Part shown: piece by piece, positions 4,301 to 49,555 of the stretch
Position numbering within the stretch: position 1 is the first letter of the stretch
How the letters are laid out: every line of letters starts with the position of its first letter
Assembly (NCBI GenBank): GCA_964658305.1
Contig: OZ210885.1
Coordinates: forward strand, 3,162,001 to 3,226,000
Direction: 5' to 3'
Length of the DNA: 64,000 bases
Source of the DNA: Leptogorgia sarmentosa
Lineage: Eukaryota
Position numbers and translations under genes: made by a program
Notes under the pieces: generated by a model
The model's input: the letters and a program-made list of their open reading frames with translations, nothing else
Told to the model about the DNA's origin: nothing
The model's database searches: none

Positions 4301-5436
4301 ATATATCAGGTTCTTCTCTTCGCTCCATCTTAACTGACTCTTACTTTTATTAATTGGATTTGTTACCTGCATGGTCCGGCAATGACTACAATTATTGTGA
4401 TCGATTTGTTGATCAAATTGGACAAAAAACACGATAAAAATCTGCAAACGTTTGACTCAGGCTTCGAGGTGGAAAATCTGAATGCGTAATCATGCATTTT
4501 GACATTTTGTTTAAATCCCGGCGGTATATACATAAATGATAGTGCCATGTAGAATAAAAAAAATTGCCAGACTGCCTGTATATATACCATGCTACCGTTC
4601 TGTCTTTTAAACAATATGTAGATGTCCAGTTAAATTTTCAATATAATATGAACCACCAGACTTTTTAACTTTGGTTTACAGGGACTTTTCACAATTTCAA
4701 TTTTATGCCTGAATGAGATATAGCAGGGAGATTAGTTAAAATCTGGCCTCGTATAAAGGAGTTGCCATCTGAAATGGGATTCGAGTAATTAAATACGCGT
4801 ATTATTAGTAGGTGGTTTTCCACCAATGTGCTCATGTTTAGCCTACGTGACACAATGTTAATTTAACTCTTTATACTGGACCGATGTTAATTTAACAATT
4901 TATACACCAAATTTACTCATTATGGAGAGAAAATTAAATCTTCATCAAGGAGTTAAGGTCGTTTTATTTCTCCCACTCACACTGGCACCGCCCGCTCGAA
5001 ATTTTCGGGATTGCTTTGAAACTGATGATCTTTATCACGAATGAAATACCCGATTACTAAGAGACAGAGCAGTAATCATATCTGACCCAGGATTGTTGTG
5101 TTTATTTTGACAGATGGTCATTATAAATCTGCTCCAGGATCATTTTTGTTTTCTCTGCGCAATAACGATGACCTTCCACCATTCAAGGCTCCGATGAAAA
5201 ACAAGAATTACGTGCGTGCAATTTACCGTCACAATGGATATGGACCAACATTTGGTGGTGGTCACGACTTGTACATTGCCAACAATGCGAAAATAAACAC
5301 TTACTCCCACACGAATTTTGGTCACACCTACCAAGCTCCATCTGAATACACTTACGGCCAAGCCAACACATACTCCCTCTTGGCAGGAAGCTATAAATTC
5401 ACTCCATCAGAAGTCGAAGTCTTGTATCTAAATTAA
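1398..5436 (+). pseudogene. Copy 1 of PAN-cbEGF(x3)-TLDc gene; exon 1 lies upstream of the window; premature stop in the PAN exon
   Basis: Exons with GT-AG boundaries: 1398-1621 (PAN-like), 1728-1737 (microexon), 2417-2539, 2922-3044, 3719-3853 (cbEGF, DIDEC...), 4020-4262 and 5114-5436 (TLDc: [24 protein letters not shown] / [20 protein letters not shown]). TAA at 1499-1501 where the other copies have TAT. Bases 1-1397 match intron 1 of copy 5. Confidence 0.75.
1967..2138. mobile_element. 172-bp palindromic MITE with 8-bp TSD (hAT-type)
   Basis: Ends CAGGGCCGTCGCTAGAACG...CGTTCTAGCGACGGCCCTG; nearly the whole element is an inverted repeat. TCGTTACC is duplicated at 1959-1966 and 2139-2146. 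Copies 2 and 3 show the empty site (ctgttcgttacctatac). Confidence 0.93.
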
Positions 5437-7305
5437 AAACCTACTTCAACAATGCCATAAAGTAAATGATTTTAACATAAAGTAGAATATATACCGAAGA
5501 TGATTTGAAAAAAAGCCTACTCCCATGTAATCTCCATAATTGTAAAACACACCTCAATCAATTTTATAATTTAGGGAACTTTATATGTTTAGGGAACGTA
5601 AAAAGTTCGGCTTAGCAATCTATAAAGACTTCTTCCTAAAATACATAACAGCCCTAGACGTTTATTGCATCATTTACAGTAATTTTTTATAGAAAAGTAG
5701 ATAAAGTTTTGCTGTTGTAGCTATATCCAGACGCATTATCATGATAGATAGAATGGAATTCGTCCATGATCGAAATATTGTAGAAATGCCTCAACATAAC
5801 CAAAGAAAGGCAATAATTAACTAGACAAACACTCATACACTCGCCCAAATAGACAAACACTATTTAACAGTATTATTTAACATTGTATAATTATGGTTTA
5901 ATTTGTTAAATAAAAATTTGGGAAAATCATAGTTGTTTAAATATGTATCAAGAATTGTTTTACAATAATTGAACTGTACGACCAAACATGATCTACAAAA
6001 AAGTCCGTAAACTCGAAACCGAGACTGAATCGCAAATGAACAAAAAGAACATCGTGCTGTAAGATGACATGTTTTTGAGGTATGTTTGATTTTTTAATTG
6101 CATTTAATTTTCTTATTTTTGTGCATGGAATTAGAATTCAATACGAGTTTTTTTAAGCCCCAGGTTTCAGTGAATAGTGCTTTTTTATATCATTTGTATC
6201 GTGAACATTTTTTTAAAATATCAAGCGGGGTTCCATTTATTAATTAAATAATCATTGCTCAATTTGAATGAATCCGAAAACCCACCAAAGATGCAATTAG
6301 TTTAAGAACCTTTTTACGGCATTTCTTCGAAAAATGTAACAGAATGTCGATCGTTTCTGCCCGAATAGACTAGCATGCATACATCGTTTATCTATGTTTT
6401 GGTTTTGAAAAAGAACCTCGGAAAAATTGCATTCTTGCCGGTATTTATTTCCTTGGTTTGGAACAACCCCGAAAAATTTGAACAAACTGAAATTATTAGT
6501 CATAACGCGTCAGAATTCTAGGACTAGAAGACTAGCTTTTTCAGTCGAAACATATTCTTTAGCCTCGATCGGAAATGCTTTTTTTCATTATTCTCTCAAT
6601 TAGAAACGGGCTGGGCCGGGGGTTCATATATTTGGCAAGTTTAAGAATTTGTTTTACATTTTCGACTCAGGAAACGTCGAAGGCGAGGCATAATTCACTG
6701 CGAGACAACATTTTGGTTCATTGCGATACTTTAAGAGACACGTTGCCGCATTCAGGGGCCCTACAAAAGGGGGGGGGGGGGGGGGCATTCATCCAGCATA
6801 TCATAAACAGTTATCCTGCGCATACAAATATGTCCTAACCTATTTCATTCATATGAGCCGGGAGATGTTATTAACGTTAACTTAGAAATATATGTTGTAC
6901 AGGTGCGACATAATATTCAGATAAAACAGCCTAATGTTAGTATATAGTTCATCAAAGCAATATCTTCAGAGGTTTTTGGGATTGGGAATTCAATGGTGAT
7001 TAGGATATGACTAGGCGTACTCGATATTCGTCTTCACCCGTTTTCTTATATGGTTTTCAAGGAATTTAAGACATGTTTTGAATAAAACGCTCCGTGACCG
7101 CATTAACTGCTGGGCGCACTGATGGTTACAAATGCACAAATTTCAGTCTCCTGCGCACATTAGCCGGGGGGGGGGGGGTGATCCTGCATCTAACGTATTT
7201 GTCCTAAGGTTTAACGCGTTTACAGTAGGAAATTTAATAAATATCGGTCGCTGCATTTTCTTAGATCACGCAAACTTCTTCCACCATTTTTAACAGGGGA
7301 ACTAT

Positions 7306-7449
7306 CAGGGGCCTCGGGATATCAAAAATTAGGGGGGGGGCAAATATTCATATATTCGAAGTATTTGAAATCATCTGTTTTCAATGTCTGTTAACAAAAA
7401 TGTATGAATATCCCCCCCCCCCCCAATTATCGATTTTCCGCTGCCCCCA
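7306..7449. mobile_element. Decayed MITE resembling the 1967-2138 family, in the spacer
   Basis: CAGGGG...aaaattaggggggggcaaatattcata...tatgaatatccccccc aattatcg...gctgcccc, flanked by GGAACTAT and GGAACTCT (degenerate 8-bp TSD). Homologues lie near 18082, 29275 and 51528. Confidence 0.6.
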
Positions 7450-8845
7450 GGAACTCTTATAGAGCCAACTATAATTTTTGCAAATTATTGCTTCGCTGTA
7501 CATAAAACCGGGATTTGCAAACTCTTTTTAGTGAGGAAGAAGGAATCATGTTATTTACGGTTCATTGCATGCATGTGGTGCTTTCTATTGATAGGCGGTG
7601 CGTGCAGGTTTAGTTTGCTATTCAAAATCATGAAAGAAAAAGGGGGGTTATCTGGTTTTCTGTATGGTAGACTTTTCCGTCTAATAAGTGAAGCTAGTGC
7701 AGGGCTTTTAAGTTAAAACGCTTGACTGCCAAATTTTCGCTTAAATTTTCAATTTTTTTAAGAACTTTCCAGTTGAAAAAGTCAATTAAGCTTGTTGCTC
7801 TGTTGAAAAATATTTGCAGAGGTAATTAAGCATGCTTCGTCGTAAGCAATATAGGTGCACCTGCCACAATTAAGACGGTCGTAATAAACTCGAGTTACAC
7901 GGTCAGTTGACAATTGCCAACGAAAAAAAATACGCTGGTTTTTAATCGACATGCATTTTGTTTTCGTGTCTGATCTCAAACATTTTTTTAAGATTTGTTT
8001 GTTCCATTTATAAGCATGGTTCTCATTATTTTGATCCAGTCCTGCACTTATTTCTCAACAGACACCTTACTGGAATACATGAATATAAACATATAATTTT
8101 GGATTTCCTCATTATTATCGTGTTTTGTCATTGTTGTCATATTTGAAATCATTTGTTTTCAATGTCTGTTAACACCAATGTATGAATCCCCCCCCCATTA
8201 ATCGATTTTCCGCTGCCCCCCGGGGTATCTTATAGAGCCAACTATAATTTTTCGAAAATTATTGCTTCGCAGTACATAAAACCGGGATTTGCAAACTTTT
8301 TTTAATGAGGAAGAAGGAATCATGATATTTATGGTGCAGGTTTAGTTTGCTATTCAAAATCATGAAAGAAAAAGAGAGGGGAGGGGGGGGGGGGGTGTTG
8401 TCTGGTTTTCTGTGTGCCAAGAATACGCTTGACTGTCAAAGCAGCTTTATTTTTCAATTTTTTTATGAACTTTCCAGTTGAAGAAGTCAATTAAGCTTGT
8501 TCCTATGTTGAAAAATATTTGCAGAGGTAGTTAAGCATGCTTCGTCGTAAGCAATATAGCTGCACCTGCCACAATTAAGACGGTCGTAATAAAGACTTGT
8601 GTTAACTTAACTCCGAGTTACACGGTCAGTTGACAATTGCCAACGAAAAAAAAATACGCTGGTTTTTAATCGACATGCATTTTGTTTTCGTGTCTGATCT
8701 CAAACTTTTTTTTAATTTGTTCCATTTATAACCCGGCATGGTTCTCATTATTTTGATCCAGTCCTGCACGTATTTCTCAACAAACACCTTACTGGAATAA
8801 ATGAATATAAGCGTATAATTTTGGATTTCCTCATTGTCATTGTGT
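7363..8845 (+). repeat. Tandem duplication of a ~0.75-kb unit within the intergenic spacer
   Basis: The block starting atttgaaatcat(c/t)tgttttcaatgtctgttaac and ending ggatttcctcatt occurs twice. The same pair recurs at about 18140-19675, 29333-30393 (first unit internally deleted) and 51588-53125. Confidence 0.85.
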
Positions 8846-10039
8846 TTATATTATAATGGGGCAAAAATTGCATGTTTTTATTATTTGAATAACAGTATGT
8901 GTGGGTTGAAACCGGCGTTTCTGTGCTGCGATGTTAGTAATTATTGAAAAGTCGCCTCTGTGTCTGACAAACATCGGCCTTCTATGACCTCTTAGCCTGG
9001 GACATGCCGCGGGAATGGCTTTGAAACATTTAAAAGTATTTTGGAGTTGATGGACGGAAACTTTGGCAAGTTTTGTATTGCTGTTCAAAATTTCAGAACA
9101 TTTGGTTCAGTTTAAGCCTTTCAGAACGTCACGCAAACTATTGTTTTTGGTCAGCTTTCTGCATACCTAATTAGACGTGAATTGCCTGTTTGTAATCACG
9201 TGACTTTTCGCCCAAATGACGAGCAATTGAACAACTTGTGCACAATTTTTCCCAGTATCTAAAGTACTTGTAGCAAGATAAAATGACGGTAACACATTCT
9301 CTCCAAGATTTAAAATCTCTCTAAATCTTAAAATGTCTTCAATGGATCGATTCTTGTCCTACTTGCCCGTCAACTGGAATTCCAAGTTTACGCCATTGCA
9401 AACAACCAATCAAGCATGCGAAAAGCTAATTATGCGAAAAACGCGCGACGTCTTGAAAGGCTTAAAATCAATAATTTTTTTTGAAATTTCCACCGTCAAT
9501 ATGCAATACTCGGTAAAGTTTTGTAAAAATGACTTGTAAGCGTTTAAATTTTGTGCGTTAGCCATTTCTTTTCTTTTCTGTTGGAAAAGACGCCCCCCTG
9601 AACTTTCAAAGTTTAATTTAAATTTTTCTTCGCTTATTACACATCATAAGCAACCAAACAATGTAGCTATATAAAGCAAAAACTCCGTCCGCCGAGCCCG
9701 AGTCGAATTTGAGAGCAATTTCAAAATTCTTTGTTCAGTTTTTCATACATCATGATACATGCATCCCAGATTAAATACATTTATACCATTTTCCTTGTGT
9801 TGGAACGAGAGACAAATGAATTTTACAAAATACAGTCGAAACTATTCAGATGGAATAAAACATCTTCATCACCGAGACGCGCGAGGACTCTTCCAAACTC
9901 CTTAACTCAATCATGCAGTTTACACAAAGCACTTCAGGTCAAGAAGCCCGCGCAGACATTTAATATCGCGACACTCATATCGAAGAATCTAGTAGCATAG
10001 CAATTTCAGACGTCGCAATTTTATGCTGTGTTCCAAGAG

Positions 10040-10133: not shown

Positions 10134-13100
10134 ATGAATTTTCTGGCATTGTTAATGGTGATGTTTCCGATGTCCATTGCACTGAAACCTGTTTCCAAAG
10201 ACGGAAAGACATGTTCTTGGAGACATTTCAAGAACGCCAGCTTGGGTAACTATTTTTTATATTAATTTGGGTTACAATTTTCATGTACACTCCACTTCGA
10301 GTTGAGCTGGCGCGTCATATCTTAACAGCCAAATTGTATTTGTATAGCATGCATAGGCATATAGCCTATTTCAGTTTAAACTCACTGATATATAATTTAT
10401 CATGATATGCGTGAATATCCGTCTAGATCGTTATCCGTTAGTTATGCTTGCCTCTACAGGCACTGCAGTTTAATGTTTGCATGCTGGAACCACATAAATT
10501 TTTGTTTCATGTGAAAGGCATATGATTTTTTATCCATGCACCTGCGATCGGTTGTACAAAGCGAGCTGAGGTCAGTAAGGTGCTGGCTCAATTGCTAGGG
10601 ACCTAAGTTTTTCAATTCCATCATTCAAGGCCATATCCTGGCTGTAATTTAATTTTTGGGATTTTCGGTTTTGCGGATTTGGTCAATTTTAGGACGATTT
10701 TTCGATTTTTGTGTCAAATAACTGCGGTTTTTCGGTTTCGGTAATTCTCCCGCGGTTTACGGTTTTTAAAGGTTTTAGCAGTCGGTTTTCGGTTTTCAAT
10801 TGAAATACTCATGGCCTTTCGGATTTGGTCTGGAATGTAATTTTCGGTTTCTATACCAGTCTGTTTACTTGGAAACTTCATAGAAAACTATTAATGATCT
10901 ACAGAAAATTTCTGAAGAAACATTTCTAAATTTTAAAGCAAATTGTTGGAGAATTTGCTCCGAAATTAAAGTTAACCCAGGGTTAAACTAACCGGCTTTT
11001 GAACAAAATCGGCCCCTGATTGCAAACAGATAGGGGCGGCTAAGTCACATGGCATCGGTGCAATTGTATTGAAAATTGATTCAGGCTAAACATTTATATA
11101 TATCTAAAGATCACAGAGAGGAGGCAAAGTACGAACGATTTATTAATTATTCTTATATCGGATCGCTTTGTTAGTTGCGTTACTATTTAACGTGTTGAAC
11201 AATACTATGAACTGTTGCATATGACTTGCATTGGTTAATGTATGTTAGTTACCTTTAGTTTTTTGCTATTATTCCGAACTCGCACGACTGATGAACATTG
11301 AATATAGTTTGAAATAAAACATCTGTCATTACTATTCCGCGCTATTCAACTGAAATCATCGAAGTTCCAAACTCCTGAAGCCTCTCAGGCGCGCTAAGTC
11401 ACCCCCCCCCCCCCCCCCCCCCCCCCGTAAGTCCAAGAATTGAAATCCAGATCTACAAAGGCCTAAACTCAAGATTGGCGCTTCCAGCAAACCGCTAACC
11501 GAAAGGGGCCAACTTCAAATCGTATTTTAAAGTAAGTTCTTCGGCAGGAAAGTGGATTATTCACGCTTAAATTTTCATTTACAAACCACCCCAACTTCGG
11601 ACAACGAACAGTTGATATTAATGTGCGAGAATTGAAGTTTGCCGTTTGCGGTTAACGTCAATCTAAAGTGCCTAATGTCAGTTTCACACTTTGTGTTTGT
11701 GTTCTTCGACAGGAAACCAAGCACTTCGTCCATCAAACTTGATCTCAAGTCACAACGTTGATCTTTTGGTAGAATGTCATCTTCATTGCGTAAATGCAGG
11801 CAATTGCTACGGTTATAACTTCAGAGTCAGACCTAGCAGTATTTATACAACCAACTGCCAGTTGAGTAACAGCTCCGTGAAAATGAACATGACCAAGATG
11901 AGGAATGGACCTTGGAATTTCTACGAGGATGTTTTGGTAAGAATAATATAACCAGCAAATGATCCTATATTCCACGAAAATTCGGGCCTCATTGAACTCA
12001 TCGCTGTACAATTCTCTTACCGTAAATTTTGTCACCCTATAGGTTACCAAAGGTAAGCGAAAATTATGAATTAATGCAGAGTCGTTCAATACAGGTAAAC
12101 GCATAAATAAATACATGCATAAACTTTCTACGTATATATTGAAAGATGAGACAAGATTCAACTTTTCAAGCAAAGGATCTTCTTGGGAGGATAGTTGTCA
12201 ATGCTAAGTTGAATTTTGTTTTATCGTTTACATAGTTGACGGAAAATTGATGTACTATAATTTGCTACTGTTCGTTACCTATACTGGTCACATACGTATA
12301 TCAAAATTATTCTGTAGCTAAATGTCGGCCGAGGTTACAAGTCCTTATTATGAGAATATTCAACATTCCTACTAAACCAAACATTTTAGGAAATAATTTT
12401 TGTATTGCTAAAGGATATATTGCATATATTGGTAATGAGGGGGCGGTGCCCCCATCCCAAGTTCAGCTTCAGCCCCTCCCGCCCCCCCCCCCCCCCTCCA
12501 CCCCCACAAAAAGAAATCCTGGTAAAAATCACGATATTTTAATTATTTCAGACATTGACGAATGTGCTCAGGATAGTCGCACATGTCATCCCAATGCAAC
12601 ATGTATCAACACTCCAGGTTCTTACGAGTGTCAGTGTAGAAGTGGATACACTGGAAATGGCCGCACTTGCGCAGGTATTGCTCATGATGCTTGTCATAAA
12701 AATGTAACCAGTTGCAATACTTATTTATTTATTAACTTTGCCAGATTTGAACAACGTTAACTCAAAAACTGGCAGGGCCTTCGCAACAGCTTGCGCCAAT
12801 TACTGCGATCCCTAAATGTTAGACAAATACACTATATACGTACATAGAAAGAATTAATTACTAACGAACTATCAGATGCAACTTTTCACATTGCGACCCG
12901 CAGAACCACTTCCATTTAGGTTGCAGTCTGGATTAGAAGACGTTCAAACCTTCACGATCCTAAACCTATTGCAACGTTTACAAATAATCCAAGTTACTTT
13001 CAGACAATCAGACCACATTGACTTGAATTGCTCCAGTTTTCGTTATCATGTTGCAGATATTGACGAATGTCTGGACAAGTCCAATCATTGCCACTCAAAT

Positions 13101-16091
13101 GCAAACTGCACAAATGCTGACGGTTCATACAAATGTAAATGCTCTCAAGGTTACCGAGGAAATGGACAGAATTGTACAGGTAAATATCAGGACAACTTTT
13201 GTTTTGTTGAAGGGCGCTTCAGATAAAATTTGGGCCCAGGAGAAAGTAAACTTGGGGAATGTGAAGTGTGAAGTTTCGGCACAAACTTAATGCTGCCGGT
13301 CTACAAACGTTTTGGAATTGTACTACGCAATCATTTGCAGTATCAGTGGCATTGTGATAATTATATTGCCATCGTGTAGATAACGGATAGCAACATCAAC
13401 AACTAACAAAAGTTCTAGTCTGTACTACTTAAATGATATAAACAGATTTGACGTTCGAGCAAAGGTCCACTGTCGGAAGTAATTACAGTCTAAAGGGGGG
13501 GGGGGGGTACAGTCTAAAGGGAAGGGGGGGGTGTTCAAGGTAAAGAATTTAATTACGTGCACGTTATCCACAATAGTTTTGCCAATGAGCCTTCAATAAG
13601 TATAAGTAACATCATAAGTAACATCAATGGTCACAAACGTTTATTTATCTTCTATCTTCTAGTATTTTTTACTGTTACTTCGTTCATTAAAATTTATTTC
13701 TCCTTTCTGGGGCCTTTTTTCCCCATTGAAGGCTCTGTTTAACAATTTAACTTCACACATTTTGTTTCACTTCGTCATTTGCTGCCAGAAATTTGTGAAA
13801 CAGAGAAAAATCAATTTGGACGTTACTATTATTTTTTAATTTTTCAGACATTGACGAATGTTCTGAAGGCAGCCATGGCTGTCACGCTGACGCAACCTGT
13901 GTCAACACTCCAGGATCATACAATTGCACATGTCCCAGTGGGGCATATATTGGCAGAAACAAATATTGCCAGAATCTCAAAGGTGATTTATTGTTTAGTG
14001 AGATTATTCAAGTTTCTTCGGTCAATGGTTATAAGCTAGAGTCTGGAGATGTGTTTCCATGTCTGGAAGGAACGTTAAATTCCTTTATCGTTAAATCATA
14101 GTTTAATAATAATAATGACAATAATATATTAAATTTATATTCCCTCAGTCGTGTCAGCGATATTGAAAAATGAACCAAACGAATTCGAGAATAAGTTGAG
14201 AGAATGGTTGCCAAGAACAGGAAATTGGAGAGTTTGTTGGCGAGCAACACGAGATCGTTGGGCTGCGAGTACATTCCATTCAAATTGTGATGGAAAATTA
14301 CCGACCTTAACTATTGTTCAAGTCAACAAAAACAGCAAAAAGTTTGTTTTCGGTGGTTATGCTACAGTATCATGGAAGCAGGGTATCTACCACAGCACCT
14401 GTAAGTTTGAAATGATTACAGTTATAAGAGTTATTATTTTAATCATGCATGTATCAGGTTCTTCTCTTCGCTCCATCTTAACTGACTCTTACTTTTATTA
14501 ATTGGATTTGTTACCTGCATGGTCCGGCAATGACTACAATTATTGTGATACAAACATTTGTTGATCAAATTGGACAAAAACACGATAAAAATCTGCAAAC
14601 TTTTGACTCAGGCTTCAAGGTGGAAAATCTGAATGCGTAATCATGCGTTTTGACATTTTGTTTAAATCCTGGCGGTATATACATAAATGCAGCCGTTGAA
14701 CAAAGACCTCAACGGGTAGTACCCAATATTTCTCAATTGAGAACACGGGTAATGCCCACGCTGGACTATCGCCTAAGCTTGCTGGTCGGCGTTTCAGTAT
14801 TACTCTTGATATAGTTATATAGTGTTAGATATAAACCATTTTTCTATATACTAAGAATTTCCTTAATCCCAACCCAAACCCTAGAATCCTAACCCTGACC
14901 ATTGTGGTCATAAAAATATTGAGAAAAAAAAGTTTTCATCACCAACGCTGAAAAAATGTGTCGTACTGGGGTTTGAACTATAGAACTGCAACGCACGCAC
15001 CGCGTGCCTTACCACTTGAGCTAAATCGAGCTCGCTGCTCAACACTCTGGCCTGGATAAATGCATATGATTATAGACCCGGGCAATCACTGTTCATAACT
15101 TACCTGGCCAGGCTACTTAGACGATAGTCCAGCGTGGGCATTACCCATGTTCTCAATTGAGAAATATCGGGTACTACCCGTTGAGGTCTTTGTTTAACGG
15201 GTGATCAATGATAGTGCCATGTAGAATAAAATAAATTGCCAGACTGCCATTATATACCACGATACCGTTCTGTCTTTTAAACATTATGTAGATGTCCAGT
15301 TAAATTTTCAATATAATATGAACCACCAGACTTTTTAACTTTGGTTTACAGGGACTTTTCACAATTTCAATTTTATGCCTGAATGAGATAGCAGGGAGGG
15401 GCTTCGTATAAAAGGAGTGCCATCTGAAATGGGATTCGAGTAATTAAATACGCGTATAATTAGTAGGTGGTTTTCCACCAATGTGTTCATGTTTAGCCTA
15501 CGTGGCACAATGTTAATTTAACTCTTTATACTGGACCGGTGTTAATTTAACAATTTATACACCAAATTTACTCATTATGGAGAGAAAATTAAATCTTCAT
15601 TCAGGAGTTACGGTCGTTTTATTTCTCCCATCCACACTGGCACCGCCCGCTCGAAAATTTCTGAATTGCTTTGAAACTGATGATCTTTATCACGACAAAA
15701 ATACCCGATTACTAAGAGACAGAGCAGTAATCATATCTGACCCAGGATTGTTGTGTTTATTTTGACAGATGCTCATTGGTCATCTGCTCCAGGATCATTT
15801 TTGTTTTCTCTGCGCAATAACGATGACCTTCCACCATTCAAGGCTCCGATGAAAAACAAGAATTACGTGCGTGCAATTTACCGTCACAATGGATATGGAC
15901 CAACATTTGGTGGTGGTCACGACTTGCACATTGCCAACGATGCGAAATCAAACACCAACTCCTACACGAGGTTTGGTCGCACCTACCAAGCTCCATCTGG
16001 ATACACTTACGACCAACCCATGACACAATCCCTCCTGGCAGGAAGCTATACCTTCACTCCATCAGAAGTCGAAGTCTTGTATCTAAATTAA
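10134..16091 (+). CDS. Copy 2: secreted PAN/apple-like + 3 cbEGF + TLDc protein, about 433 aa, intact
   Basis: Exons 10134-10245 ([18 protein letters not shown] signal-peptide-like), 11713-11936, 12043-12052, 12552-12674, 13057-13179, 13848-13982, 14149-14400, 15769-16091. All introns are GT-AG, phases are compatible, and the total is 1302 nt with no internal stop seen. Confidence 0.88.
10657..10855. repeat. CGGTTT-rich repeat in intron 1, probably a transposon subterminal fragment
   Basis: Multiple (T)CGGTTT motifs; homologous blocks at about 21508-21700, 33025-33220 and 55813-56010. No intact termini were recognised. Confidence 0.4.
14690..15203. mobile_element. 514-bp non-autonomous TIR element (about 90-bp imperfect TIRs, 7-bp TSD) in the last intron of copy 2
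   Basis: CAGCCGTTGAACAAAGACCTCAACGGGTAGTACCC... versus ...GGGTACTACCCGTTGAGGTCTTTGTTTAACGGGTG. Flanks are ATAAATG and ATCAATG. Copy 1 has the empty site (acataaatgatagtgcc). Confidence 0.9.
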
Positions 16092-19000
16092 AAACGTGCT
16101 TCAACAATGCCATAAGGTAAATAATTTTAACAAAAAGCAGGATATACGTAACTGATTTGAGAAATGCCTACTCCCACCTAAACTCCATGAGTACAAAACA
16201 CACCTCAAACAATTTTATAATTTAGGGAACTTTATATGTTTAGGGAACATAAAATTTCCGTGTCTAAAAATTGACAAGCCTTAGCAATCTATAAAGACTT
16301 CTTCCTAAAATACATAACAGCCCTAGACGTTTATTGCATCATTAATTTTACAGTAATTTTTTATAGAAAAGTAGATAAAGTTTATTTTGCTGTTGTAGCT
16401 ATATCCAGCCACATTATGATGACAGATAGAATGGAATTCGTCCATGAAATATTGTAGAAATGCCTCAACAGTCAACATAACCAAAGAAAGGCAATAATTA
16501 ACTAGACAAACACTCATACACTCGCCCAAATAGACAAACACTATTTGACAGTATTATTAAACATTGTATAATTATGGGTTAATTTGTTAAATAAAAATTT
16601 GGGAAAATCATAGTTGTTTAAATATGTATCAAGAATTGTTTTACAATAAACTGTACAACCAAACATGATCTACAAAAAAGTCCGTAAACTCGAAACCGAG
16701 GGTGAATCGCAAATGAACAAAAAGGACATCGTGCTGTAAGATGACATGTTTTTGAGGTATGTTTGATTTTTTAATTGCATTTAAATTTTTTATTTTTGTG
16801 CAAGGAATTAGAATTCAATACGAGTTTTTTTAAGCCCCAGGTTTGAATAGTGCTTTTTTATATCATTTGTATCGTGAACATTTTTTTTAAATATCAAGCG
16901 GGGTTCCATTTATTAATTAAATAATTATTGCTCAATTTGAATGAATCCGAAAACCCACCAAAGATGCAATTAGTTTAAGAACCTTTTTACGGCATTTCTT
17001 CGAAAAATGTAACAGAATGTCGATCGTTTCTGCTCGAATAGACTAGCATGCATACATCGTTTATCTATGTTTAGGTTTTGAAAAAGAACCTCGGAAAAAT
17101 TGCATTCTTGCAGGTATTTATTTCCTTGGTTTGGAACAACCCCGAAAAATTTGAACAAACTGAAATTAAGTCATAATGCATCAGAATTCTAGGACTAGAA
17201 GACTGGCTTTTTCAGTCGAAAGATATTCTTTAGCCTCGATCGGAAATGCTTTTTTTCATTATTCTCTCTAGCTATAAGAAACGGGCAGGGGTGGGGGTCA
17301 TATATTTGGCAAGTTTAAGAATTTGTTTTACATTTTCGACTCAGGAAACGATGAAGGCGAGGCATAATTCGCTGCGAGACAACATTTTGGTTCATTGCGA
17401 TACTTTAAGAGACACGTTGCCGCATTCAGGGGACCTGCAAAAGGGGGGGGGGGGCATCCAGCAGATCATACACAGTTATCCTGCGCATACAAATATGTCC
17501 AAACCTATTTCATGCATATGAGCCGGGAGATGTTATCAACTTAGAAATAACGAATGATGCACCTTAATATTCAGATAAAACAGCCTAATGTTAGTATATA
17601 GTTCATCAAAGCAATATCTTCAGAGGTTTTTGGGATTGGGAATTCAATGGTGATTAGGATATGACTAGGCGTACTCGATATTCGTCTTCACCCGCTTTCT
17701 TAAATGGTTTTCAAGGAATTTAAGACATGTTTTGAATAAAACGCTCCCTGACCGCATTAACCGCTGGGCGCCCTGATGGGGCCAATGAATTATTGGGGCC
17801 CAAACATCTTCGGTGGTCAGTTACAAATTCATAAATTTCATTCTCCTGCGCACATTATCCGGGGGGGGGGGGGGGGAGGGGGCTGGGAGTGTGGAGATCC
17901 TGCCGGCTGCCGTCTAACGTATTTTGTCCTACTTGTGTCGCTTTCATTTTAATCATAATATCCTTGAATCGCAAGGGTTATAATTATAAGGTTTAACGCG
18001 TTTACAGTAGGAAATTTAATAGGTATCGGTCGCTGCATTTCCTTAGATCACGTACTTTCACCATTTTTAACAGAGGAACTATCAGGGGACGCAGAATATC
18101 AAAAATTAGGGGGGGTGGCAAATATTCATATATTCGAAATATTTTGAAATCATCTGTTTTCAATGTCTGTGAACAACAATGTATGAATAACCCCCGCCCC
18201 AATTATCGATTTTCCGCTGCCCCCAGGAACTCTTATCGAGCCAACTATAATTTTCTCAAATTATTGTTTCGCAGTACATAAAACCGAGGTTTGCAAACTC
18301 TTTTCAATGAGGAAGAAGGAATCATGATATTTATGGTTCATTGCATGGATGCGGTGCTTTCTATTGATAGGTGGTGCGTGCAGGTTCAGTTTGCTATTCA
18401 AAATCATGAAAGAAAAAGCGAGGGGGGGAGGGGGTTATCTGCTTTTCTGTATAATGTAGACTTTTCAGCCTAATAAGTAAGTGTAAGGCTTTTAAGTTAA
18501 AACGCTTGACTGCCAAATTTGAGCTTAACTTTTCAATTTTTTAAGAACTTTCCAGTTGAAGAAGTCAATTAAGCTTGTTGCTATGTTGAAAAATATTTGC
18601 AGAGGTAGTTAATCATGCTTCGTCGTAAGCAATATAGCTGCACCTGCCACAATTAAGACGCTCGTAATAAAGACTTGTGTTAACTTAACTCCGAGTTACA
18701 CGGTCAGTTGACAATTGCCAACGAAAAAAAATACGCTGGCTGTTAATCGACATGCATTTTGTTTTCGTGCCTGATCTCAAACATTTTTTTAATTTGTTCC
18801 ATTTATAACCCGGCATGGTTCTCATTATTTTGATCTAGTCCTGCACGTATTTCTCAACAGACACCTTACTGGAATACATGAATATCAACATATAATTTTG
18901 GATTTCCTCATTGTTATCGTGTTTTGTCATTGTTGTCATATTTGAAATCATTTGTTTTCAATGTCTGTTAACACCAATGTATGAATCCCCTCCCCCCATT

Positions 19001-20888
19001 AATCGATTTTCCACTGCCCCCGGGGTCTCTTATAGAGCCAACCCTAATTTTTCAAAAATTATTGGTTCGCTGCACACTACATAAAACCGGGATTTGCAAA
19101 CTCTTTTTAATGAGGAAGAAGGAATCATGATATTTATGGTGCAGGTTTAGTTTGCTATTCAAAATCATGAAAGAAAAAGCGGGGGAGGGGTTATCTGGTT
19201 TTCTGTATAATGTAGACTTTTCAGCCTAATAAGTAAGTGTAGGGCTTTTAAGTTAAAACGCTTGACTGCCAAATTTGAGCTTAACTTTCCAATTTTTTAT
19301 GAACTTTCCAGTTGAAGAAGTCAATTAAGCTTGTTGCTATGTTGAAAAATATTTGCAGAGGTAGTTAAGCATGCCTCGTCGTAAGCAATATAGCTGCACC
19401 TGCCACAATTAAGACGCTCGTAATAAAGACTTGTGTTAACTTAACTCCGAGTTACACGGTCAGTTGACAATTGCCAACGAAAAAAAATACGCTGGTTTTT
19501 AATCGACATGCATTTTGTTTTCCTGTCTGATCTCAAACTTTTTTTAATTTGTTCCATTTATAAGCATGGTTCTCATTATTTTGATCTACTAGTCCTGCAC
19601 GTATTTCTCAACAGACACCTTACTGGAATAAATGAATATAAACGTATAATTTTGGATTTCCTCATTGTCATTGTGTTTATATTTAATGGGGCAAAAATTG
19701 CATGTTTTTATTATTTGAATAAAAGTATGTGTGGGTTGAAACCGGCGTTTCTGTGCTGCGATGTTAGTAATTATTGAAAAGTCGCCTCTGTGTCTGACAA
19801 ACATCGGCCTTCTATGACCTCTTAGCCTGGGACATGCCGCGGGAATGGATTTCGCACGAAATGTAAACATTTAAAAGTATTTTTGAGTTGATGGACGGAA
19901 ACTTTGGCAAGTTTTGTATTGCTGTTCAAAATTTCAGAACATTTGGTTCAGTTTAAGCCTTTCAGAACGTCACGCAAACTATTGTTTTTGGTCAGCTTTC
20001 TGCATACCTAATTAGACGTGAATTGCATGTTTGTAATCACTTGACTTTTTGCCCAAATGACGAGCAATTGAACAACTTGTGTACAATTTTTCTCAGTATC
20101 TAAGTACTTGTAGCAAGATAAAATGACGGTAACACATTCTCTCCAAGACTTAAAATCTCTCTAAATCTTAAAATGTCTCCAATGGTTCGATTCTCGTCCT
20201 ACTTGCCCGTCAACTGGAATTCCAAGTTTACGCCATTGCAAACAACCAATCAAGCATGCGAAAAGCTAATTATGCGAAAAACGCGCGACGTCTTGAAAGG
20301 CTTAAAATCAATAATTTTTTTTGAAATTTCCACCGGCAATGATGCAATAGTCGGTAAAGTTTTGTAAAAATGACTTGTAAGCGTTTAAATTTTGTGCGTT
20401 AGCCATTTCTTTTCTTTTCTGTTGGAAAAGACGCCCCCCTGAACTTTCAAAGTTTAATTAAAATTTTTTTTCGCTTATTACATATCATAAGCAACCAAAC
20501 AATGTAGCTATATAAAGCAAAAACTCCGTCCGCCGAGCCCGAGTCGAATTTGAGAGCAATTTCAAAATTATTTGTTCAGTTTTTCATACATCATGATACA
20601 TGCATCCCAGATTAAATACATTTATACCATTTTCCTTCGTTCCACGATGTAGAACGAGAGACAAATGAATTTTACAAAATACAGTCGAAACTATTCAGAT
20701 GGAATAAAACATCTTCATCACCGAGACGCGCGAGGACTCTTCCAAACTCCTTAACTCAATCATGCAGTTTACACAAAGCACTTCAGGTCAAGAAGCCCGC
20801 GCAGACATTTAATATCGCGACACTCATATCGAAGAATCTAGTAGCATAGCAATTTCAGACGTCGCAATTTTATGCTGTGTTCCAAGAG

Positions 20889-20895
20889 TATAAAA
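20889..20895 (+). promoter_or_regulatory. TATA box of copy 3
   Basis: TATAAAA at the position homologous to copy 2, upstream of ATG 20983. Confidence 0.6.
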
Positions 20896-20982
20896 GTAGC
20901 CCCGCATACTACGATTTCATTCAGACAATTCAGACCGAAAAGCCTTGCCGAATCAACCTTTGGAATTCATCAATTTTAAAGA

Positions 20983-23900
20983 ATGAATTTTCTGGCATTG
21001 TTAATGGTGATGTTTCCGATGTCCATTGCACTGAAACCTGTTTCCAAAGACGGAAAGACATGTTCTTGGAGACATTTCAAGAACGCCAGCTTGGGAAACT
21101 ATTTTTTATATTAATTTGGGTTACAATTTTCATGTACACTCCACTTCGAGTTGAGCTGGCGCGTCATATCTTAACAGCCAAATTGTATTTGTATATAGCA
21201 TGCATAGGCATATAGCCTATTTCAGTTTAAACTCACTGATATATAATTTATCATGATATGCGTGAATAACCGTCTAGATCGTTATCCGTTAGTTATGCTT
21301 GCCTCTACAGGCACTGCAGTTTAATGTTTGCATGCTGGAACCACATAAATTTTTGTTTCATGTGAAAGGCATATCATTTTTTATCCATGCACCTGCGATC
21401 GGTTGTACAAAGCGAGCTGAGGTCAGTAAGGTGCTGGCTCAATTGCTAGGGACCTAAGTTTTTCAATTCCATCATTCAAGGCCATATCCTGGCTGTAATT
21501 TAATTTTTGGGATTTTCGGTTTTGCGGATTTGGTCAATTTTAGGACGATTTTTCGATTTTTGTGTCAAATAACTGCGGTTTTTCGGTTTCGGTAATTCTC
21601 CCGCGGTTTACGGTTTTTAAAGGTTTTAGCAGTCGGTTTTCGGTTTTCAATTGAAATACTCATGACCTTTCGGATTTGGTCTGGAATGTAATTTTCGGTT
21701 TCCCAGAGTTCTACCAGTCTGTTTACTTGGAAACTTCATAGAAAACTATTAATGATCTATAAAGAAAATTTTTGAAGAAACATTTCTAAATTTTAAAGCA
21801 AATTGTTGGAGAATTTGCTCCGAAATTAAAGTTGACCCAGGGTTAAACTAACCGGCTTTTGAACAAAATCGGCCCCTGATTGCAAACAGATAGGGGCGGC
21901 TAAGTCACATGGCATCAGTGCAATTGTATTGAAAATTGATTCAGGCTAAACAGCTATATATATCTAAACATCACAGAGAGGAGACAAACGAACGTTGTAT
22001 TAATTATTCTTATATCGAATCGTTTTTTTAGTTGCGCTACTATTTAACGTGTTGAACAAATTGTGTAATGTGTGTTAGTTACCTTTAGTTTTAGTACAGT
22101 TTTTTGCCACTATTTCGAACTCGCACGACTGATGAACATTGAATATAGTTTGAAATAAAACATCTGTCATTACTATTCCGCGCTATTCAACTGAAATCAT
22201 CGAAGTTCCAAACTCCTGAAGCCTCTCAGGCGCGCTAAGTCACCCCCCCCCCCCCCCCCCCCCGTAGGTCCAAGAATTGAAATCCAGATCTACAAAGGCC
22301 TAAACTCAAGATTGGCGCTTCCAGCAAACCGCTAACCGAAAGGGGCCAACTTCAAATCGTATTTTAAAGTAAGTTCTTCGGCAGGAAAGTGGATTATTCA
22401 CGCTTAAATTTTCATTTACAAACCACCCCAACTTCGGACAACGAACGTTTGCGGTTAACGTCAATCTAAAGTGCCTAATGTCAGTTTCACACTTTGTGTT
22501 TGTGTTCTTCGACAGGAAACCAAGCACTTCGTCCATCAAACTTGATCTCAAGTCACAACGTTGATCTTTTGGTAGAATGTCATCTTCATTGTGTAAATGC
22601 AGGCAATTGCTACGGTTATAACTTCAGAGTCAGACCTAGCAGTATTTATACAACCAACTGCCAGTTGAGTAACAGCTTCGTGAAAATGAACATGACCAAG
22701 ATGAGGAATGGACCTTGGAATTTCTACGAGGATGTTTTGGTAAGAATAATATAACCAGCAAATGATCCTATATTCCACGAAAATTCGGGCCTCATTGAAC
22801 TCATCGCTGTACAATTCTCTTACCGTAAATTTTGTCACCCTATAGGTTACCAAAGGTAAGCGAAAATTATGAATTAATGCAGAGTCGTTCAATACAGGTA
22901 AACGCATAAATAAATACATGCATAAACTTTCTACGTATATATTGAAAGATGAGACAAGATTCAACTTTTCAAGCAAAGGATCTTCTTGGGAGGATAGTTG
23001 TCAATGCTAAGTTGAATTTTGTTTTATCGTTTACATAGTTGACGGAAAATTGATGTACTATAATTTGCTACTGTTCGTTACCTATACTGGTCACATACGT
23101 ATATCAAAATTATTCTGTAGCTAAATGTCGGCCGAGGTTACAAGTCCTTATTATGAGAATATTCAACATTCCTACTAAACCAAACATTTTAGGAAACAAT
23201 TTTTGTATTGCTAAAGGATATATTGCATATATTGGTAATGAGGGGGCGGTGCCCCCATCCCAAGTTCAGCTTCAGCCCCCTCCCCCCCCCCCACCCACCC
23301 TCCACCCCCACAAAAAGAAATCCTGGTAAAAATCACGATATTTTAATTATTTCAGACATTGACGAATGTGCTCAGGATAGTCGCACATGTCATCCCAATG
23401 CAACATGTATCAACACTCCAGGTTCTTACGACTGTCAGTGTAGAAGTGGATACACTGGAAATGGCCGCACTTGCGCAGGTATTGCTCATGATGCTTGTCA
23501 TAAAAATGTAACCAGTTGCAATACTTATTTATTTATTAACTTTGCCAGATTTGAACAACGTTAACTCAAAAACTGGCAGGGCCATCGCAACAGCTTGCGC
23601 CAATTACTGCGATCCCTAAATGTTAGACAAATACACTATATACGTACATAGAAAGAATTAATTACTAACGAACTATCAGATGCAACTTTTCACATTGCGA
23701 CCCGCAGAACCACTTCCATTTAGGAAGCAGTCTGGATTAGAAGACGTTCAAACCTTCACGATCCTAAACCTATTGCAACGTTTACAAATAATCCAAGTTA
23801 CTTTCAGACAATCAGACCACATTGACTTGAATTGCTCCAGTTTTCGTTATCATGTTATAGATATTGACGAATGTCTGGACAAGTCCAATCATTGCCACTC

Positions 23901-26887
23901 AAATGCAAACTGCACAAATACTGACGGTTCATACAAATGTAAATGCTCTCAAGGTTACCGAGGAAATGGACAGAATTGTACAGGTAAATATCAGGACAAC
24001 TTTTGTTTTGTTGAAGGGCGCTTCAGATAAAATTTGGGCCCAGGGGAAAGTAAACATGGGGAATGTGAAGTGTGAAGTTTCGGTACAAACTTAATGCTGC
24101 CGGTCTACAAATGTTTTGGAATTGTACTACGCAATCATTTGCAGTATCTGTGGCATTGTGATAATTACATTGCCATCGTGTAGATAACGGATAGCAACAT
24201 CAACAACTAACAAAAGTTCTAGTCTGTACTACTTAAATGATATAAACAGATTTGACGTTCGAACAAAGGTCCACTGTCGGAAGTAATTACAGTCTGAAGG
24301 GGGGGGGGTACAGTCTAAAGGGAAGGGGGGGTGTTCAAGGTAAAGAATTTAATTACGTGCACGTTATCCACAATAGTTTTGCCAATGAGCCTTCAATAAG
24401 TATAAGTAACATCATAAGTAACATCAATGGTCACAAACGTTTATTTATCTTCTATCTTCTAGTATTTTTTACTGTTACTTCGTTCATTAAAATTTATTTC
24501 TCCTTTCTGGGGCCTTTTTTCCCCATTGAAGGCTCTGTTTAACAATTTAACTTCACACATTTTGTTTCACTTCGTCATTTGCTGCCAGAAATTTGTGAAA
24601 CAGAGAAAAATCAATTTGGACGTTACTATTATTTTTTAATTTTTCAGACATTGACGAATGTTCTGAAGGCAGCCATGGCTGTCACGCTGACGCAACCTGT
24701 GTCAACACTCCAGGATCATACAATTGCACATGTCCCAGTGGGGCATATATTGGCAGAAACAAATATTGCCAGAATCTCAAAGGTGATTTATTGTTTAGTG
24801 AGATTATTCAAGTTTCTTCGGTCAATGGTTATAAGCTAGAGTCTGGAGATGTGTTTCCATGTCTGGAAGGAACGCTAAATTTCTTTATCGTTAAATCATA
24901 GTTTAATAATAATAATGACAATAATATATTAAATTTATATTCCCTCAGTCGTGTCAGCGATATTGAAAAATGAACCAAACGAATTCGAGAATAAGTTGAG
25001 AGAATGGTTGCCAAGAACAGGAAATTGGAGAGTTTGTTGGCGAGCAACACGAGATCGTTGGGCTGCGAGTACATTCCATTCAAATTGTGATGGAAAATTA
25101 CCGACCTTAACTATTGTTCAAGTCAACAAAAACAGCAAAAAGTTTGTTTTCGGTGGTTATGCTACAGTATCATGGAAGCAGGGTATCTACCACAGCACCT
25201 GTAAGTTTGAAATGATTACAGTTATAAGAGTTATTATTTTAATCATGTATCAGGTTCTTCTCTTCGCTCCATCTTAACTGACTCTTACTTTCATTAATTG
25301 GATTTGTTACCTGCATGGTCCGGCAATGACTACAATTATTGTGATACAAACATTTGTTGATCAAATTGGACAAAAACACGATAAAAATCTGCAAACTTTT
25401 GACTCAGGCTTCAAGGTGGAAAATCTGAATGCGTAATCATGCGTTTTGACATTTTGTTTAAATCCTGGCGGTATATACTTAAATGCAGCCGTTGAACAAA
25501 GACCTCAACGGGTAGTACCCAATATTTCTCAATTGAGAACACGGGTAATGCCCACGCTGGACTATCGCCTAAGCTTGCTGGTCGGCGTTTCAGTATTACT
25601 CTTGATATAGTTATATAGTGTAAGATATAAACCATTTTTCTATATACTAAGAATTTCCTTAATCCCAACCCAAACCCTAGAATCCTAACCCTGACCATTG
25701 TGGTCATAAAAATATTGAGAAAAAAAAGTTTTCATCACCAACGCTGAAAAAATGTGTCGTACTGGGGTTTGAACTATAGAACTGCAACGCACGCACCGCG
25801 TGCCTTACCACTTGAGCTAAATCGAGCTCGCTGCTCAGCACTCTGGCCTGGATAAATGCATATGATTATAGACCCGGGCAATCACTGTTCATAACTTACC
25901 TGGCCAGGCTACTTAGACGATAGTCCAGCGTGGGCATTACCCATGTTCTCAATTGAGAAATATCGGGTACTACCCGTTGAGGTCTTTGTTTAACGGGTGA
26001 TAAATGATAGTGCCATGTAGAATAAAATAAATTGCCAGACTGCCATTATATACCACGATACCGTTCTGTCTTTTAAACATTATGTAGATGTCCAGTTAAA
26101 TTTTCAATATAATATGAACCACCAGACTTTTTAACTTTGGTTTACAGGGACTTTTCACAATTTCAATTTTATGCCTGAACGAGATAGCAGGGAGGGGCTT
26201 CGTATAAAAGGAGTGCCATCTGAAATGGGATTCGAGTAATTAAATACGCGTATAATTAGTAGGTGGTTTTCCACCAATGTGTTCATGTTTAGCCTACGTG
26301 GCACAATGTTAATTTAACTCTTTATACTGGACCGGTGTTAATTTAACAATTTATACACCAAATTTACTCATTATGGAGAGAAAATTAAATCTTCATTCAG
26401 GAGTTACGGTCGTTTTATTTCTCCCATCCACACTGGCACCGCCCGCTCGAAATTTTCGGGATTGCTTTGAAACTGATGATCTTTATCACGACAGAAATAC
26501 CCGATTACTAAGAGACAGAGCAGTAATCATATCTGACCCAGGATTGTTGTGTTTATTTTGACAGATGGTCATTATAAATCTGCTCCAGGATCATTTTTGT
26601 TTTCTCTGCGCAATAACGATGACCTTCCACCATTCAAGGCTCCGATGAAAAACAAGAATGACGGGAATGCAATTTACCGTGGCAGTGGATATGGACCAAC
26701 ATTTGGTGGTAGTCACGACTTGTACATTGCCAACGATGCGAAATCAAACACCAACTCCTACACGAGGTTTGGTCACACCTACCAAGCTCCATCTGGATAC
26801 ACTTACGGCCAAGCCAACACACGATCCCTCCTGGCAGGAAGCCATTCCTTCACTCCATCAGAAGTCGAAGTCTTGTATCTAAATTAA
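20983..26887 (+). CDS. Copy 3: PAN-cbEGF(x3)-TLDc paralog with exon-1 donor changed GT>GA (possible pseudogene)
   Basis: Exons 20983-21094, 22516-22739, 22846-22855, 23356-23478, 23861-23983, 24648-24782, 24949-25200, 26565-26887. Exon frames are open, but the donor at 21095-21096 reads GA (ttgg|gaaact versus ttgg|gtaact in copies 2, 4 and 6). Confidence 0.72.
25486..25999. mobile_element. Same 514-bp TIR element at the equivalent site in copy 3
   Basis: Near-identical to 14690-15203; right-hand TSD ATAAATG at 26000-26006. Confidence 0.9.
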
Positions 26888-49500: not shown

Positions 49501-49555
49501 GGCAGGAAGCTATTACTTCACTCCATCAGAAGTCGAAGTCTTGTATCTAAATTAA
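43532..49555 (+). CDS. Copy 5: secreted PAN-cbEGF(x3)-TLDc protein with a divergent (type B) signal exon, about 423 aa, intact
   Basis: Exons 43532-43640 ([19 protein letters not shown]; an in-frame upstream ATG lies at 43511), 45155-45378, 45543-45552, 45989-46111, 46271-46393, 47732-47848, 48090-48332, 49233-49555. Total 1272 nt, GT-AG throughout, no stop seen. Confidence 0.88.

Follow-up and report, generated by a model that had tools for sequence, protein, structure and literature searches.

Probable diversifying selection on the last exon of a tandem PAN-EGF-TLDc gene family in Leptogorgia sarmentosa

The coral Leptogorgia sarmentosa carries, within a 64,000-nucleotide (nt) stretch of contig OZ210885.1 (positions 3,162,001 to 3,226,000 of the forward strand; GCA_964658305.1), a tandem array of six genes whose predicted products combine PAN, calcium-binding EGF and TLDc domains. 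We refer to this whole stretch as the window, number positions from its first letter and designate the gene copies c1 to c6. The ratio of nonsynonymous to synonymous divergence (dN/dS) exceeds 1 only in the last exon, which encodes the second part of the TLDc domain, and in a loop that straddles the last intron. In this exon, replacement changes outpace silent ones two- to threefold. Diversifying selection accompanied by exchange between copies is a well supported reading of this pattern. With a probability of about 65%, we propose that the array encodes predicted secreted proteins in which selection favours diversity in TLDc loops binding a variable, probably non-self, ligand.

Results

Replacement differences between copies 2 and 3

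An initial annotation of the window had singled out the last exons of c2 and c3, listing 17 changed codons and no synonymous difference between them. Our comparison agrees on every count. The two exons are collinear (15769-16091 and 26565-26887) and differ at 22 of 323 bases. These differences affect 17 codons, none of them is silent, and the resulting amino acid pairs match the list one for one: A/G, W/Y, S/K, Y/D, V/G, R/N, H/G, N/S, G/S, H/Y, R/H, D/G, P/A, M/N, Q/R, Y/H and T/S. The further claim that the same copies differ by only a few bases elsewhere was borne out by their alignment, with 2/224 differences in the PAN exon, 1/123 in each of the first two EGF exons and 0/252 in the first TLDc exon. 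Additionally, a microexon (0/10) and the third EGF exon (0/136) are identical, and the introns differ at 30 of 3250 positions (0.9%).

Nei-Gojobori (NG86) counts for this pair are 0 synonymous (Sd) and 22 nonsynonymous (Nd) differences, so that dS is 0 and the ratio infinite. Simulated sets of 22 random substitutions lack a synonymous change with a probability of 0.0007-0.002, the binomial distribution gives 0.003, and the value rises to 0.007-0.016 when adjacent changes are merged into 15 events. Differences are denser in the exon than in the introns (30/3250), both overall (22/323; P=1.2e-10) and at replacement sites (22/244; P=6e-13), and its silent sites (0/74) are less diverged than the 3' flank (26/298; P=0.004). 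Taken alone, the c2-c3 pair is significant but not overwhelming, and the strength of the case comes from all copies together.

Selection across the array

Among the five complete last exons, 44 of 106 codons vary, 38 at the protein level and six by silent changes only. The distribution of variable bases over the three codon positions (29/23/16) did not differ significantly from uniform in a chi-square test done by hand. NG86 dN/dS of the last exon exceeded 1 in all ten pairs, with values of 1.33-3.19 in the nine other than c2-c3. In the conserved core of the first TLDc exon (75 codons), the ratio was 0.21-0.81 for the 13 pairs, out of 15, that have silent differences, and in a control region joining the PAN exon, two EGF exons and this core (229 codons) it was 0.31-0.76 in all 15.

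The last exon shows a dS of 0-0.11 and a dN of 0.09-0.17. Between copy groups, its dS is 0.05-0.11, as compared with 0.12-0.17 in the control exons. The final 300 nt of the last intron differ by 2.8-5.0% among copies 1, 2, 3, 5 and 6 (c4 has an insertion there), and the 3' flanks by 4.8-11% among copies, placing the exon dN above all local neutral yardsticks. Since the silent sites of the exon are no more diverged than nearby non-coding DNA, neither old divergence, nor relaxed constraint, nor the boundaries of conversion tracts explain the pattern.

Old divergence deserves separate mention, because the body of c2 and c3 could have been homogenised recently, up to a conversion-tract boundary, leaving an older last exon and 3' flank. 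Indeed, the flank (8.7%) and the exon (6.8%) are far more diverged than the upstream DNA (0.9%), and the transition is no more than some 70 nt away from where the exon begins. Yet a neutral divergence of 8.7% predicts around six silent differences in the exon, where none is seen (P=0.004), the exon dS across copies (0.04-0.11) is lower than in the remaining exons (0.12-0.17 between groups), and the intron immediately upstream is among the least diverged segments. The low dS together with the low divergence of this intron indicates that the exon region is the most recently exchanged part of the gene, not the oldest, making this scenario very improbable.

Codon models were fitted with our own implementation of the Goldman-Yang likelihood, using F3x4 frequencies. 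For the last exon, omega was 3.23-4.02 on all 15 unrooted topologies of the five copies, and omega=1 was rejected on each, with twice the log-likelihood difference (2dlnL) at 13.7-18.7. Model M2a was likewise preferred over M1a on the 15 topologies (2dlnL 54.5-68.1), assigning 21-26% of the codons to a class with omega 16-20, and the comparisons of M8 with M7 and with M8a gave 54.6 and 54.5, respectively. Results were similar with equal codon frequencies (omega 3.29; likelihood-ratio test 52.4). The control region, which also served as a check on the code, yielded an omega of 0.46 and no signal of selection (M2a against M1a, 2dlnL 0.58). The diversifying selection suggested by the initial annotation is thus recovered as a dN/dS above 1 in every pair, a comparison independent of any tree, on 15 topologies and in three partitions with separate trees (see below).

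These values also bear on relaxed constraint, under which the array would be decaying and the last exon drifting neutrally in redundant or dead copies. The defects found in copies 1, 3, 4 and 6 (see below) and a ratio of 1.04 between the proportions of nonsynonymous (pN) and synonymous (pS) differences outside the hypervariable patches would fit such decay. Neutral drift, however, leads to an omega near 1, which was rejected on 15/15 topologies, and would hardly leave 0 synonymous changes among the 22 c2-c3 differences. Furthermore, the five complete exons are open, all changes in loop length are in frame, purifying selection acts on the remainder of these genes (omega 0.46), and transcript-like contigs match the last exon. 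We therefore regard relaxed constraint as quite unlikely.

Exchange between copies

The trees preferred by the control region, ((c2,c3),c1,(c4,c5)), and by the last exon, ((c1,c2),c3,(c4,c5)), are in conflict. Four-gamete tests within the last exon failed for 69 of 120 pairs of informative sites, implying a minimum number of recombination events (Rm) of at least 6, and 15 of the 16 informative sites are at codon position 1 or 2. Three partitions of the exon (codons 1-26, 27-60 and 61-106) each prefer a different tree. Fitted on their own trees, they gave 2dlnL values of 6.85, 20.07 and 23.49 for M2a against M1a, and omega reached 8.2 in codons 27-60. The sum, 50.4 (6 degrees of freedom; P=4e-9), indicates that dN/dS stays above 1 once recombination is accounted for, one of the points on which the initial annotation had made its proposal depend.

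Variant motifs are shared in mosaic fashion among copies, and introns and other exons are homogenised between neighbours (0.9% for c2-c3, against approximately 8.5% in intergenic DNA). At six of the 17 codons that distinguish c2 from c3, each of the two states is also carried by another copy, whereas the c2 state is unique in seven and the c3 state in four; shuffling of standing variants and new substitutions therefore both contribute. The 28 codons of the hypervariable patches have a pS of 0.105 and a pN of 0.315.

Micro-conversion from diverged paralogues, or multi-nucleotide mutation, might mimic positive selection. Such an origin would account for the clustering of changes (22 differences reduce to 15 events, one of four adjacent bases), the four-gamete failures with their Rm, the 6/17 codons whose states recur elsewhere, and a pS that is higher inside the patches than outside (0.105 against 0.044). 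It sits poorly with the 11 isolated single-base differences between c2 and c3, every one of them nonsynonymous, and with the concentration of informative sites at the first two codon positions. As conversion transfers silent and replacement differences alike, it cannot by itself yield a pN/pS of 3 in the patches or a count of 22:0. A purely mutational origin is accordingly unlikely in our view; conversion is instead a part of the preferred explanation that needs selection as a filter.

Variable sites, loops and fold

All the clusters of variation named in the initial annotation are present, i.e. the exon start, a 12-residue segment, the T-x-F motif, the [G/D]Q..T. segment and the S..F motif (Table 1). 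Its remark that the changes often involve Tyr, Trp, His or Arg is upheld by their frequency at variable positions (65/190 residues, against 25/340 at invariant ones), counts that are not independent because each position is represented by five copies. Codons 1, 4, 30, 32, 34, 38, 67, 86 and 94 had posterior probabilities of selection above 0.95 on all topologies, and codons 3 and 39 above 0.9 on the best tree.

HV1, the loop across the last intron, joins the end of the first TLDc exon (in c2 its final eight codons, 14376-14400) to the first four codons of the last. It varies in sequence and in length among the six copies (3-8 codons in the part from the first TLDc exon), always in frame, and its versions are rich in Tyr, Gly, His and Ser; those of c2 and c3 have 13 residues each. 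Hand translation of transcript-like contigs from two runs revealed five further versions beyond the window, for instance GSS-N-GHYT and NRYYS-Y-GHYK.

We modelled the structure of P0003, a homologue from Dendronephthya that shares 69% identity over the last exon, using an alignment of 27 sequences (pLDDT 90.6; pTM 0.89). The top 16 Foldseek matches of the model (E ≤ 3e-4) are all TLDc domains, with TMq of 0.61-0.70, and it superposes on 6r82 (Skywalker), 7obp (NCOA7), 4acj (OXR2) and 7u4t (mEAK7) with TM-scores of 0.62-0.70, at a sequence identity to solved TLDc domains of only 16-19%. A phmmer search of the PDB with P0003 returned no match, and a search of the ESM Atlas returned only generic clusters of 'TLDc domain-containing protein'. 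The resemblance to fibrinogen-like domains in the trailing Foldseek matches was rejected as noise (E ≥ 0.07; TM ≤ 0.34).

The secondary structure of the homologue model places seven of the 11 top sites in loops. Sites that vary in the array also correspond to high-entropy columns among 19 homologues of other cnidarians (2.15 against 1.20 bits; P=1e-7). The variable sites may form a ligand-binding surface, as the initial annotation had proposed.

Gene model and domains

Searches of the window with tblastn and blastn matched the last TLDc exon six times, always on the + strand, and self-comparison defined a tandem array with stop codons spaced by 9.5-13.1 kb. All five complete last exons retain an open frame. 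The exon under study, that of c2, and its c3 counterpart are each 323 nt long, with an AG acceptor, phase 1 and a TAA stop; open reading frames (ORFs) in alternative frames or antisense over the exon (50-97 aa) were discarded for lack of support.

Copy 2 comprises eight exons, which spliced together give an open frame of 433 codons; an additional, fourth EGF exon in copies 4 and 6 brings the range for the array to 8-9 exons. The 433-aa product starts with a predicted signal peptide and has no evident second hydrophobic segment. Because the signal-peptide exon is followed by PAN and calcium-binding EGF modules, the protein is predicted to be secreted. A permissive tblastn with Dendronephthya N-termini gave no match to the signal-peptide exon, which was located through a contig joint instead of by homology.

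The PAN match is marginal for exon 2 alone, the first PAN cysteine being in exon 1. The microexon between the PAN and EGF exons moves the phase from 0 to 1 and reads GTTACCAAAG or GTCACTAAAG depending on the copy. Each EGF exon opens with a DIDEC motif, the D-x-D/N-E-C start of calcium-binding modules, and scores 39-53 bits with Pfam EGF_CA/EGF_3 (EGF_CA, PF07645, 39.5-46.6 against a cutoff of 27). Both TLDc exons, each taken alone, exceed the cutoff of Pfam TLD (PF07534; 24.5), and so do the homologues P0003 (80.3 bits) and P0002 (73.7 bits).

Table 1. Features of the array, with positions in the window
Feature	Position	Strand	Description
Copy 1 last TLDc exon	5114-5436	+	ORF intact
Copy 2 last TLDc exon (tested exon)	15769-16091	+	106 codons + stop; Pfam TLD 30.4 bits
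Copy 3 last TLDc exon	26565-26887	+	
Copy 4 last TLDc exon	39691-40013	+	
Copy 5 last TLDc exon	49233-49555	+	
Copy 6 last TLDc exon	63824-64000	+	Cut by window end; one codon shorter at start
HV1 second half	15771-15782	+	Exon codons 1-4: AHWS / GHYK / GDYT / NQWS / DHT
HV1 by copy			c1 NRYHS-Y-GHYK; c4 GSS-N-GDYT; c5 RSYYN-Y-NQWS; c6 GSS-S-DHT
HV2	15849-15896	+	Codons 27-42, 16-residue segment; codons 30, 32, 34, 38 posterior > 0.95 on all topologies
Codon 67	15969-15971	+	R/N/H in T-x-F; posterior ≥ 0.998 on all topologies
HV5	16011-16028	+	Codons 81-86, [G/D]Q[A/P/T][N/M]T[Y/Q/R/K]; codon 86 posterior 1.00
HV6	16047-16052	+	Codons 93-94, S[Y/H][K/T/S/Y]F; codon 94 posterior 0.999
Copy 2 exon 1	10134-10245	+	Start codon, hydrophobic predicted signal peptide, first PAN Cys; phase-1 GT donor
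Exon 1 counterparts	20983, 31297, 54031; diverged one 43532	+	
Copy 2 exon 2, PAN/Apple	11713-11936	+	PAN_1 (PF00024) 23.7 bits, cutoff 21.4
Copy 2 exon 3, microexon	12043-12052	+	10 nt (V-T-K), AG/GT-flanked; matches 'EDVLVTTDIDEC' of homologue P0002
Microexon, other copies	1728-1737, 22846-22855, 34454-34463, 45543-45552, 57240-57249	+	
Copy 2 exons 4-6, calcium-binding EGF (three)	12552-12674, 13057-13179, 13848-13982	+	All phase 1-1
Copy 2 exon 7, first TLDc exon	14149-14400	+	Pfam TLD 37.6 bits

Transcript-like contigs

Contigs of four runs (X8-X11) were called transcript-like solely from their GT..AG joints, none of these runs being recorded as RNA. They contained the joints 11936|12043, 12674|13057, 13179|13848 and 13982|14149, several between the two TLDc exons, and a single one, from approximately 10208 to 11713, that places exon 1. 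Five of the seven introns, with the microexon among the confirmed features, were matched exactly. Contigs of X10 and X11 showed the microexon joints, and three other 10-nt variants that belong to different members of the family. As judged from these contigs, the PAN-EGF-TLDc tandem family is expressed. In contigs of X8 and X9, the PAN exon (11936) and a microexon are joined straight to the third EGF exon (13848), so that two EGF exons are skipped; this could reflect a paralogue with a single EGF or exon skipping, which is possible because all EGF exons are phase 1-1.

Other DNA runs and the assembly

DNA contigs of four further runs displayed many different upstream sequences at a breakpoint coinciding with the start of the last exon. 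All 20 variant places of this exon among the rows listed (the table is 39 rows longer), classified by hand in the codon context of c2, change the amino acid; 17 are differences already present in the window and three are new replacements, with alleles and unseen paralogues not separable. Contig depth, which is not a measure of copy number, was at a high level in the conserved part of the exon but at a low one in HV2. The letters of c2 at 15657-15698 and at codons 70, 83 and 84 were seen in none of the contigs of these runs, which contained only alternatives. The assembled c2 may be an allele or copy specific to the individual.

The identity of 99% over 4 kb between c2 and c3, together with these c2-specific letters, could also arise if two haplotypes of one gene had been assembled in tandem. 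Against this, the two units differ by approximately 8.5% over 1.7 kb of intergenic DNA, with additional indels, and the array has six units with differing numbers of EGF exons. Even if the two were alleles, the replacement excess would stand and still point to diversifying selection of a balancing type. Consequently, such an artefact is, in our estimation, extremely unlikely.

Defects and rearrangements

Several members of the array carry defects. Copy 1 has a TAA at 1499-1501 in the PAN exon, where c2 has TAT; the exon-1 donor of copy 3 is GA instead of GT (21095-21096); and in copies 4 and 6 a Trp replaces one EGF cysteine (THWDSNAIC; 35400-35522 and 58184-58306). The first exon of copy 5 (43532-43643) is diverged, with around 81% identity in a 58-nt match, and the DNA upstream of it is unrelated to that of the other units.

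A 903-bp insertion (38786-39688) lies exactly at the acceptor of the last exon of copy 4. Its terminal inverted repeats measure 15 bp (CAGGGGTGGCGCCAG), and it has produced a target-site duplication of 8 bp (AGATGGTG), a length that would fit a hAT-like element. Through this duplication AG|ATGGTG is restored, and the exon retains a usable acceptor. Two blocks flanking this exon have second copies approximately 2-2.9 kb downstream, with 97-100% identity (38467-39012 as 41347-41895, and 40208-40841 as 42195-42829), including the old acceptor and the left end of the insertion but not the exon; their origin is a local segmental duplication or else a fault of the assembly.

The window has a GC content of approximately 37%. 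G-runs and C-runs recur in the intergenic parts of every unit, e.g. at 6700-6800, 7150-7450, 8380-8420 and 12480-12510, embedded in short repeated blocks (7362-7561 resembling 8140-8335, and 7715-8125 resembling 8422-8847) that look like small dispersed repeats.

Relatives in other cnidarians

In a protein database search, 52 of 100 candidate proteins matched the last-exon peptide at E ≤ 0.001, with a best identity of 70%. The named matches were led by the soft corals Dendronephthya gigantea and Xenia sp., followed by stony corals and sea anemones. In these last two groups, precomputed Pfam labels place the same type of TLDc after Ig/collagen, TSP1, EGF or RING/B-box modules. Three of the Dendronephthya relatives share one 4.4-Mb contig.

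Discussion

Decay under relaxed constraint, the edge of a conversion tract, conversion by itself and mis-assembly are each partial explanations, and none accounts for the excess of replacement over silent differences. In the explanation that we prefer, repeated short gene conversions or unequal crossovers would keep the scaffold of the genes uniform and shuffle variant patches, and selection would retain and add amino acid differences at about a quarter of the codons of the last exon. Each copy would in this way display a different surface rich in Tyr, His, Arg and Trp, as in other recognition-protein families of invertebrates, and the PAN and calcium-binding EGF modules may serve as stalk, anchor or for oligomerisation. 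Given selection, we set recognition of a variable, most likely non-self, ligand by the TLDc loops at roughly even odds; candidate targets would be microbes, symbionts, allogeneic tissue or prey, and a venom-like or adhesive role are alternatives.

Several observations weigh against this explanation. The 3' flank of c2 and c3 after the stop is as diverged as the exon (26/298, 8.7%, against 6.8%), and the exon is therefore no island in uniformly conserved DNA. Outside the patches, a pS of 0.044 and a pN of 0.046 (pN/pS of around 1.04) resemble relaxed constraint, and the defects of copies 1, 3, 4 and 6 suggest that some members of the array may be dying genes. Multi-base adjacent changes are common, with one c2-c3 run of four consecutive bases, which inflates the tests of the site models; the 11 isolated single-base changes, considered alone, give a P of 0.025-0.047. 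Enrichment of variable sites in non-regular structure is modest (45/65 against 66/125; P=0.03, on the homologue model). Finally, the sample consists of five full and one partial sequence, the codon models are our own code and neither PAML nor HyPhy, and partition boundaries were set by eye at conserved stretches, not by GARD.

PMC4742741 describes the TLDc domain as a conserved protector against oxidative stress. Solved members are cytosolic and several are bound to the V-ATPase, as stated in PDB titles. The array shares with TLDc proteins such as OXR1, NCOA7, TBC1D24/Skywalker, mEAK7/TLDC1 and the yeast Oxr1/Rtc5 the Pfam TLD match and the fold of the homologue model. Unlike in the solved proteins, its TLDc follows a signal peptide, PAN and calcium-binding EGF, the genes are in tandem and omega exceeds 1; the predicted secretion argues against a cytosolic, V-ATPase-binding role. 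Full-text searches, whose coverage does not extend to subscription journals, retrieved, among the papers listed, none on an extracellular or fast-evolving TLDc family.

Diversified recognition families of invertebrates include the snail FREPs, the amphioxus VCBPs, the sea-urchin 185/333 proteins, the bivalve C1q-domain proteins and Hydractinia Alr. They have in common with the array multidomain proteins that are secreted or at the cell surface (as predicted for the array), clustered genes, a conserved scaffold, a terminal domain with variable loops, and diversification by point change and exchange between copies. They differ in that the variable module of the array is a TLDc and not an Ig, fibrinogen-like, C1q or lectin fold. 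Snake phospholipases A2 (PLA2s) and cone-snail toxins also undergo accelerated evolution, with introns more conserved than the exon for the mature peptide. The array likewise shows greater divergence in the exon than in introns (9% at replacement sites against 0.9% for c2-c3) and a single discrete variable exon; in contrast with those families, its product is a multidomain protein of 433 aa and not a small toxin, and its 3' flank is diverged, not conserved. In the peptide-binding region of the major histocompatibility complex (MHC), dN exceeds dS at a minority of codons and short gene conversions between paralogues generate mosaics. The array resembles it in the few codons with dN above dS, the mosaics and a raised silent divergence beside selected sites, but is unrelated in fold and lineage, and its data may mix allelic and paralogous components. 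All considered, we rate the array as a probable gene family of the recognition type, diversifying on a fold not expected in that role.

A bolder proposal, which we advance tentatively and think somewhat likelier to fail than to hold, is that anthozoans co-opted the TLDc fold, otherwise known only from intracellular modules that bind the V-ATPase, as an extracellular, antibody-like recognition domain, and that the family is an unrecognised class of cnidarian receptors for non-self. The Tyr-rich loops would then be comparable to the complementarity-determining regions of antibodies and diversified by exchange between tandem paralogues under positive selection; an intron interrupts one of these loops, whose length also varies, and the receptors may act in immunity, choice of symbionts or allorecognition.

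To our knowledge, cnidarians have no antibodies, little is established about the molecules by which a coral specifically recognises microbes, symbiotic algae or the colonies next to it, and no allorecognition locus has been identified in an anthozoan. The array, predicted to be secreted, arranged in tandem and with antibody-like variation in its loops, is a concrete candidate for specific recognition in corals. It also gives the TLDc fold, the biochemical role of which is debated, a second and very different context, and offers, within one exon, a clean natural example of selection opposing concerted evolution.

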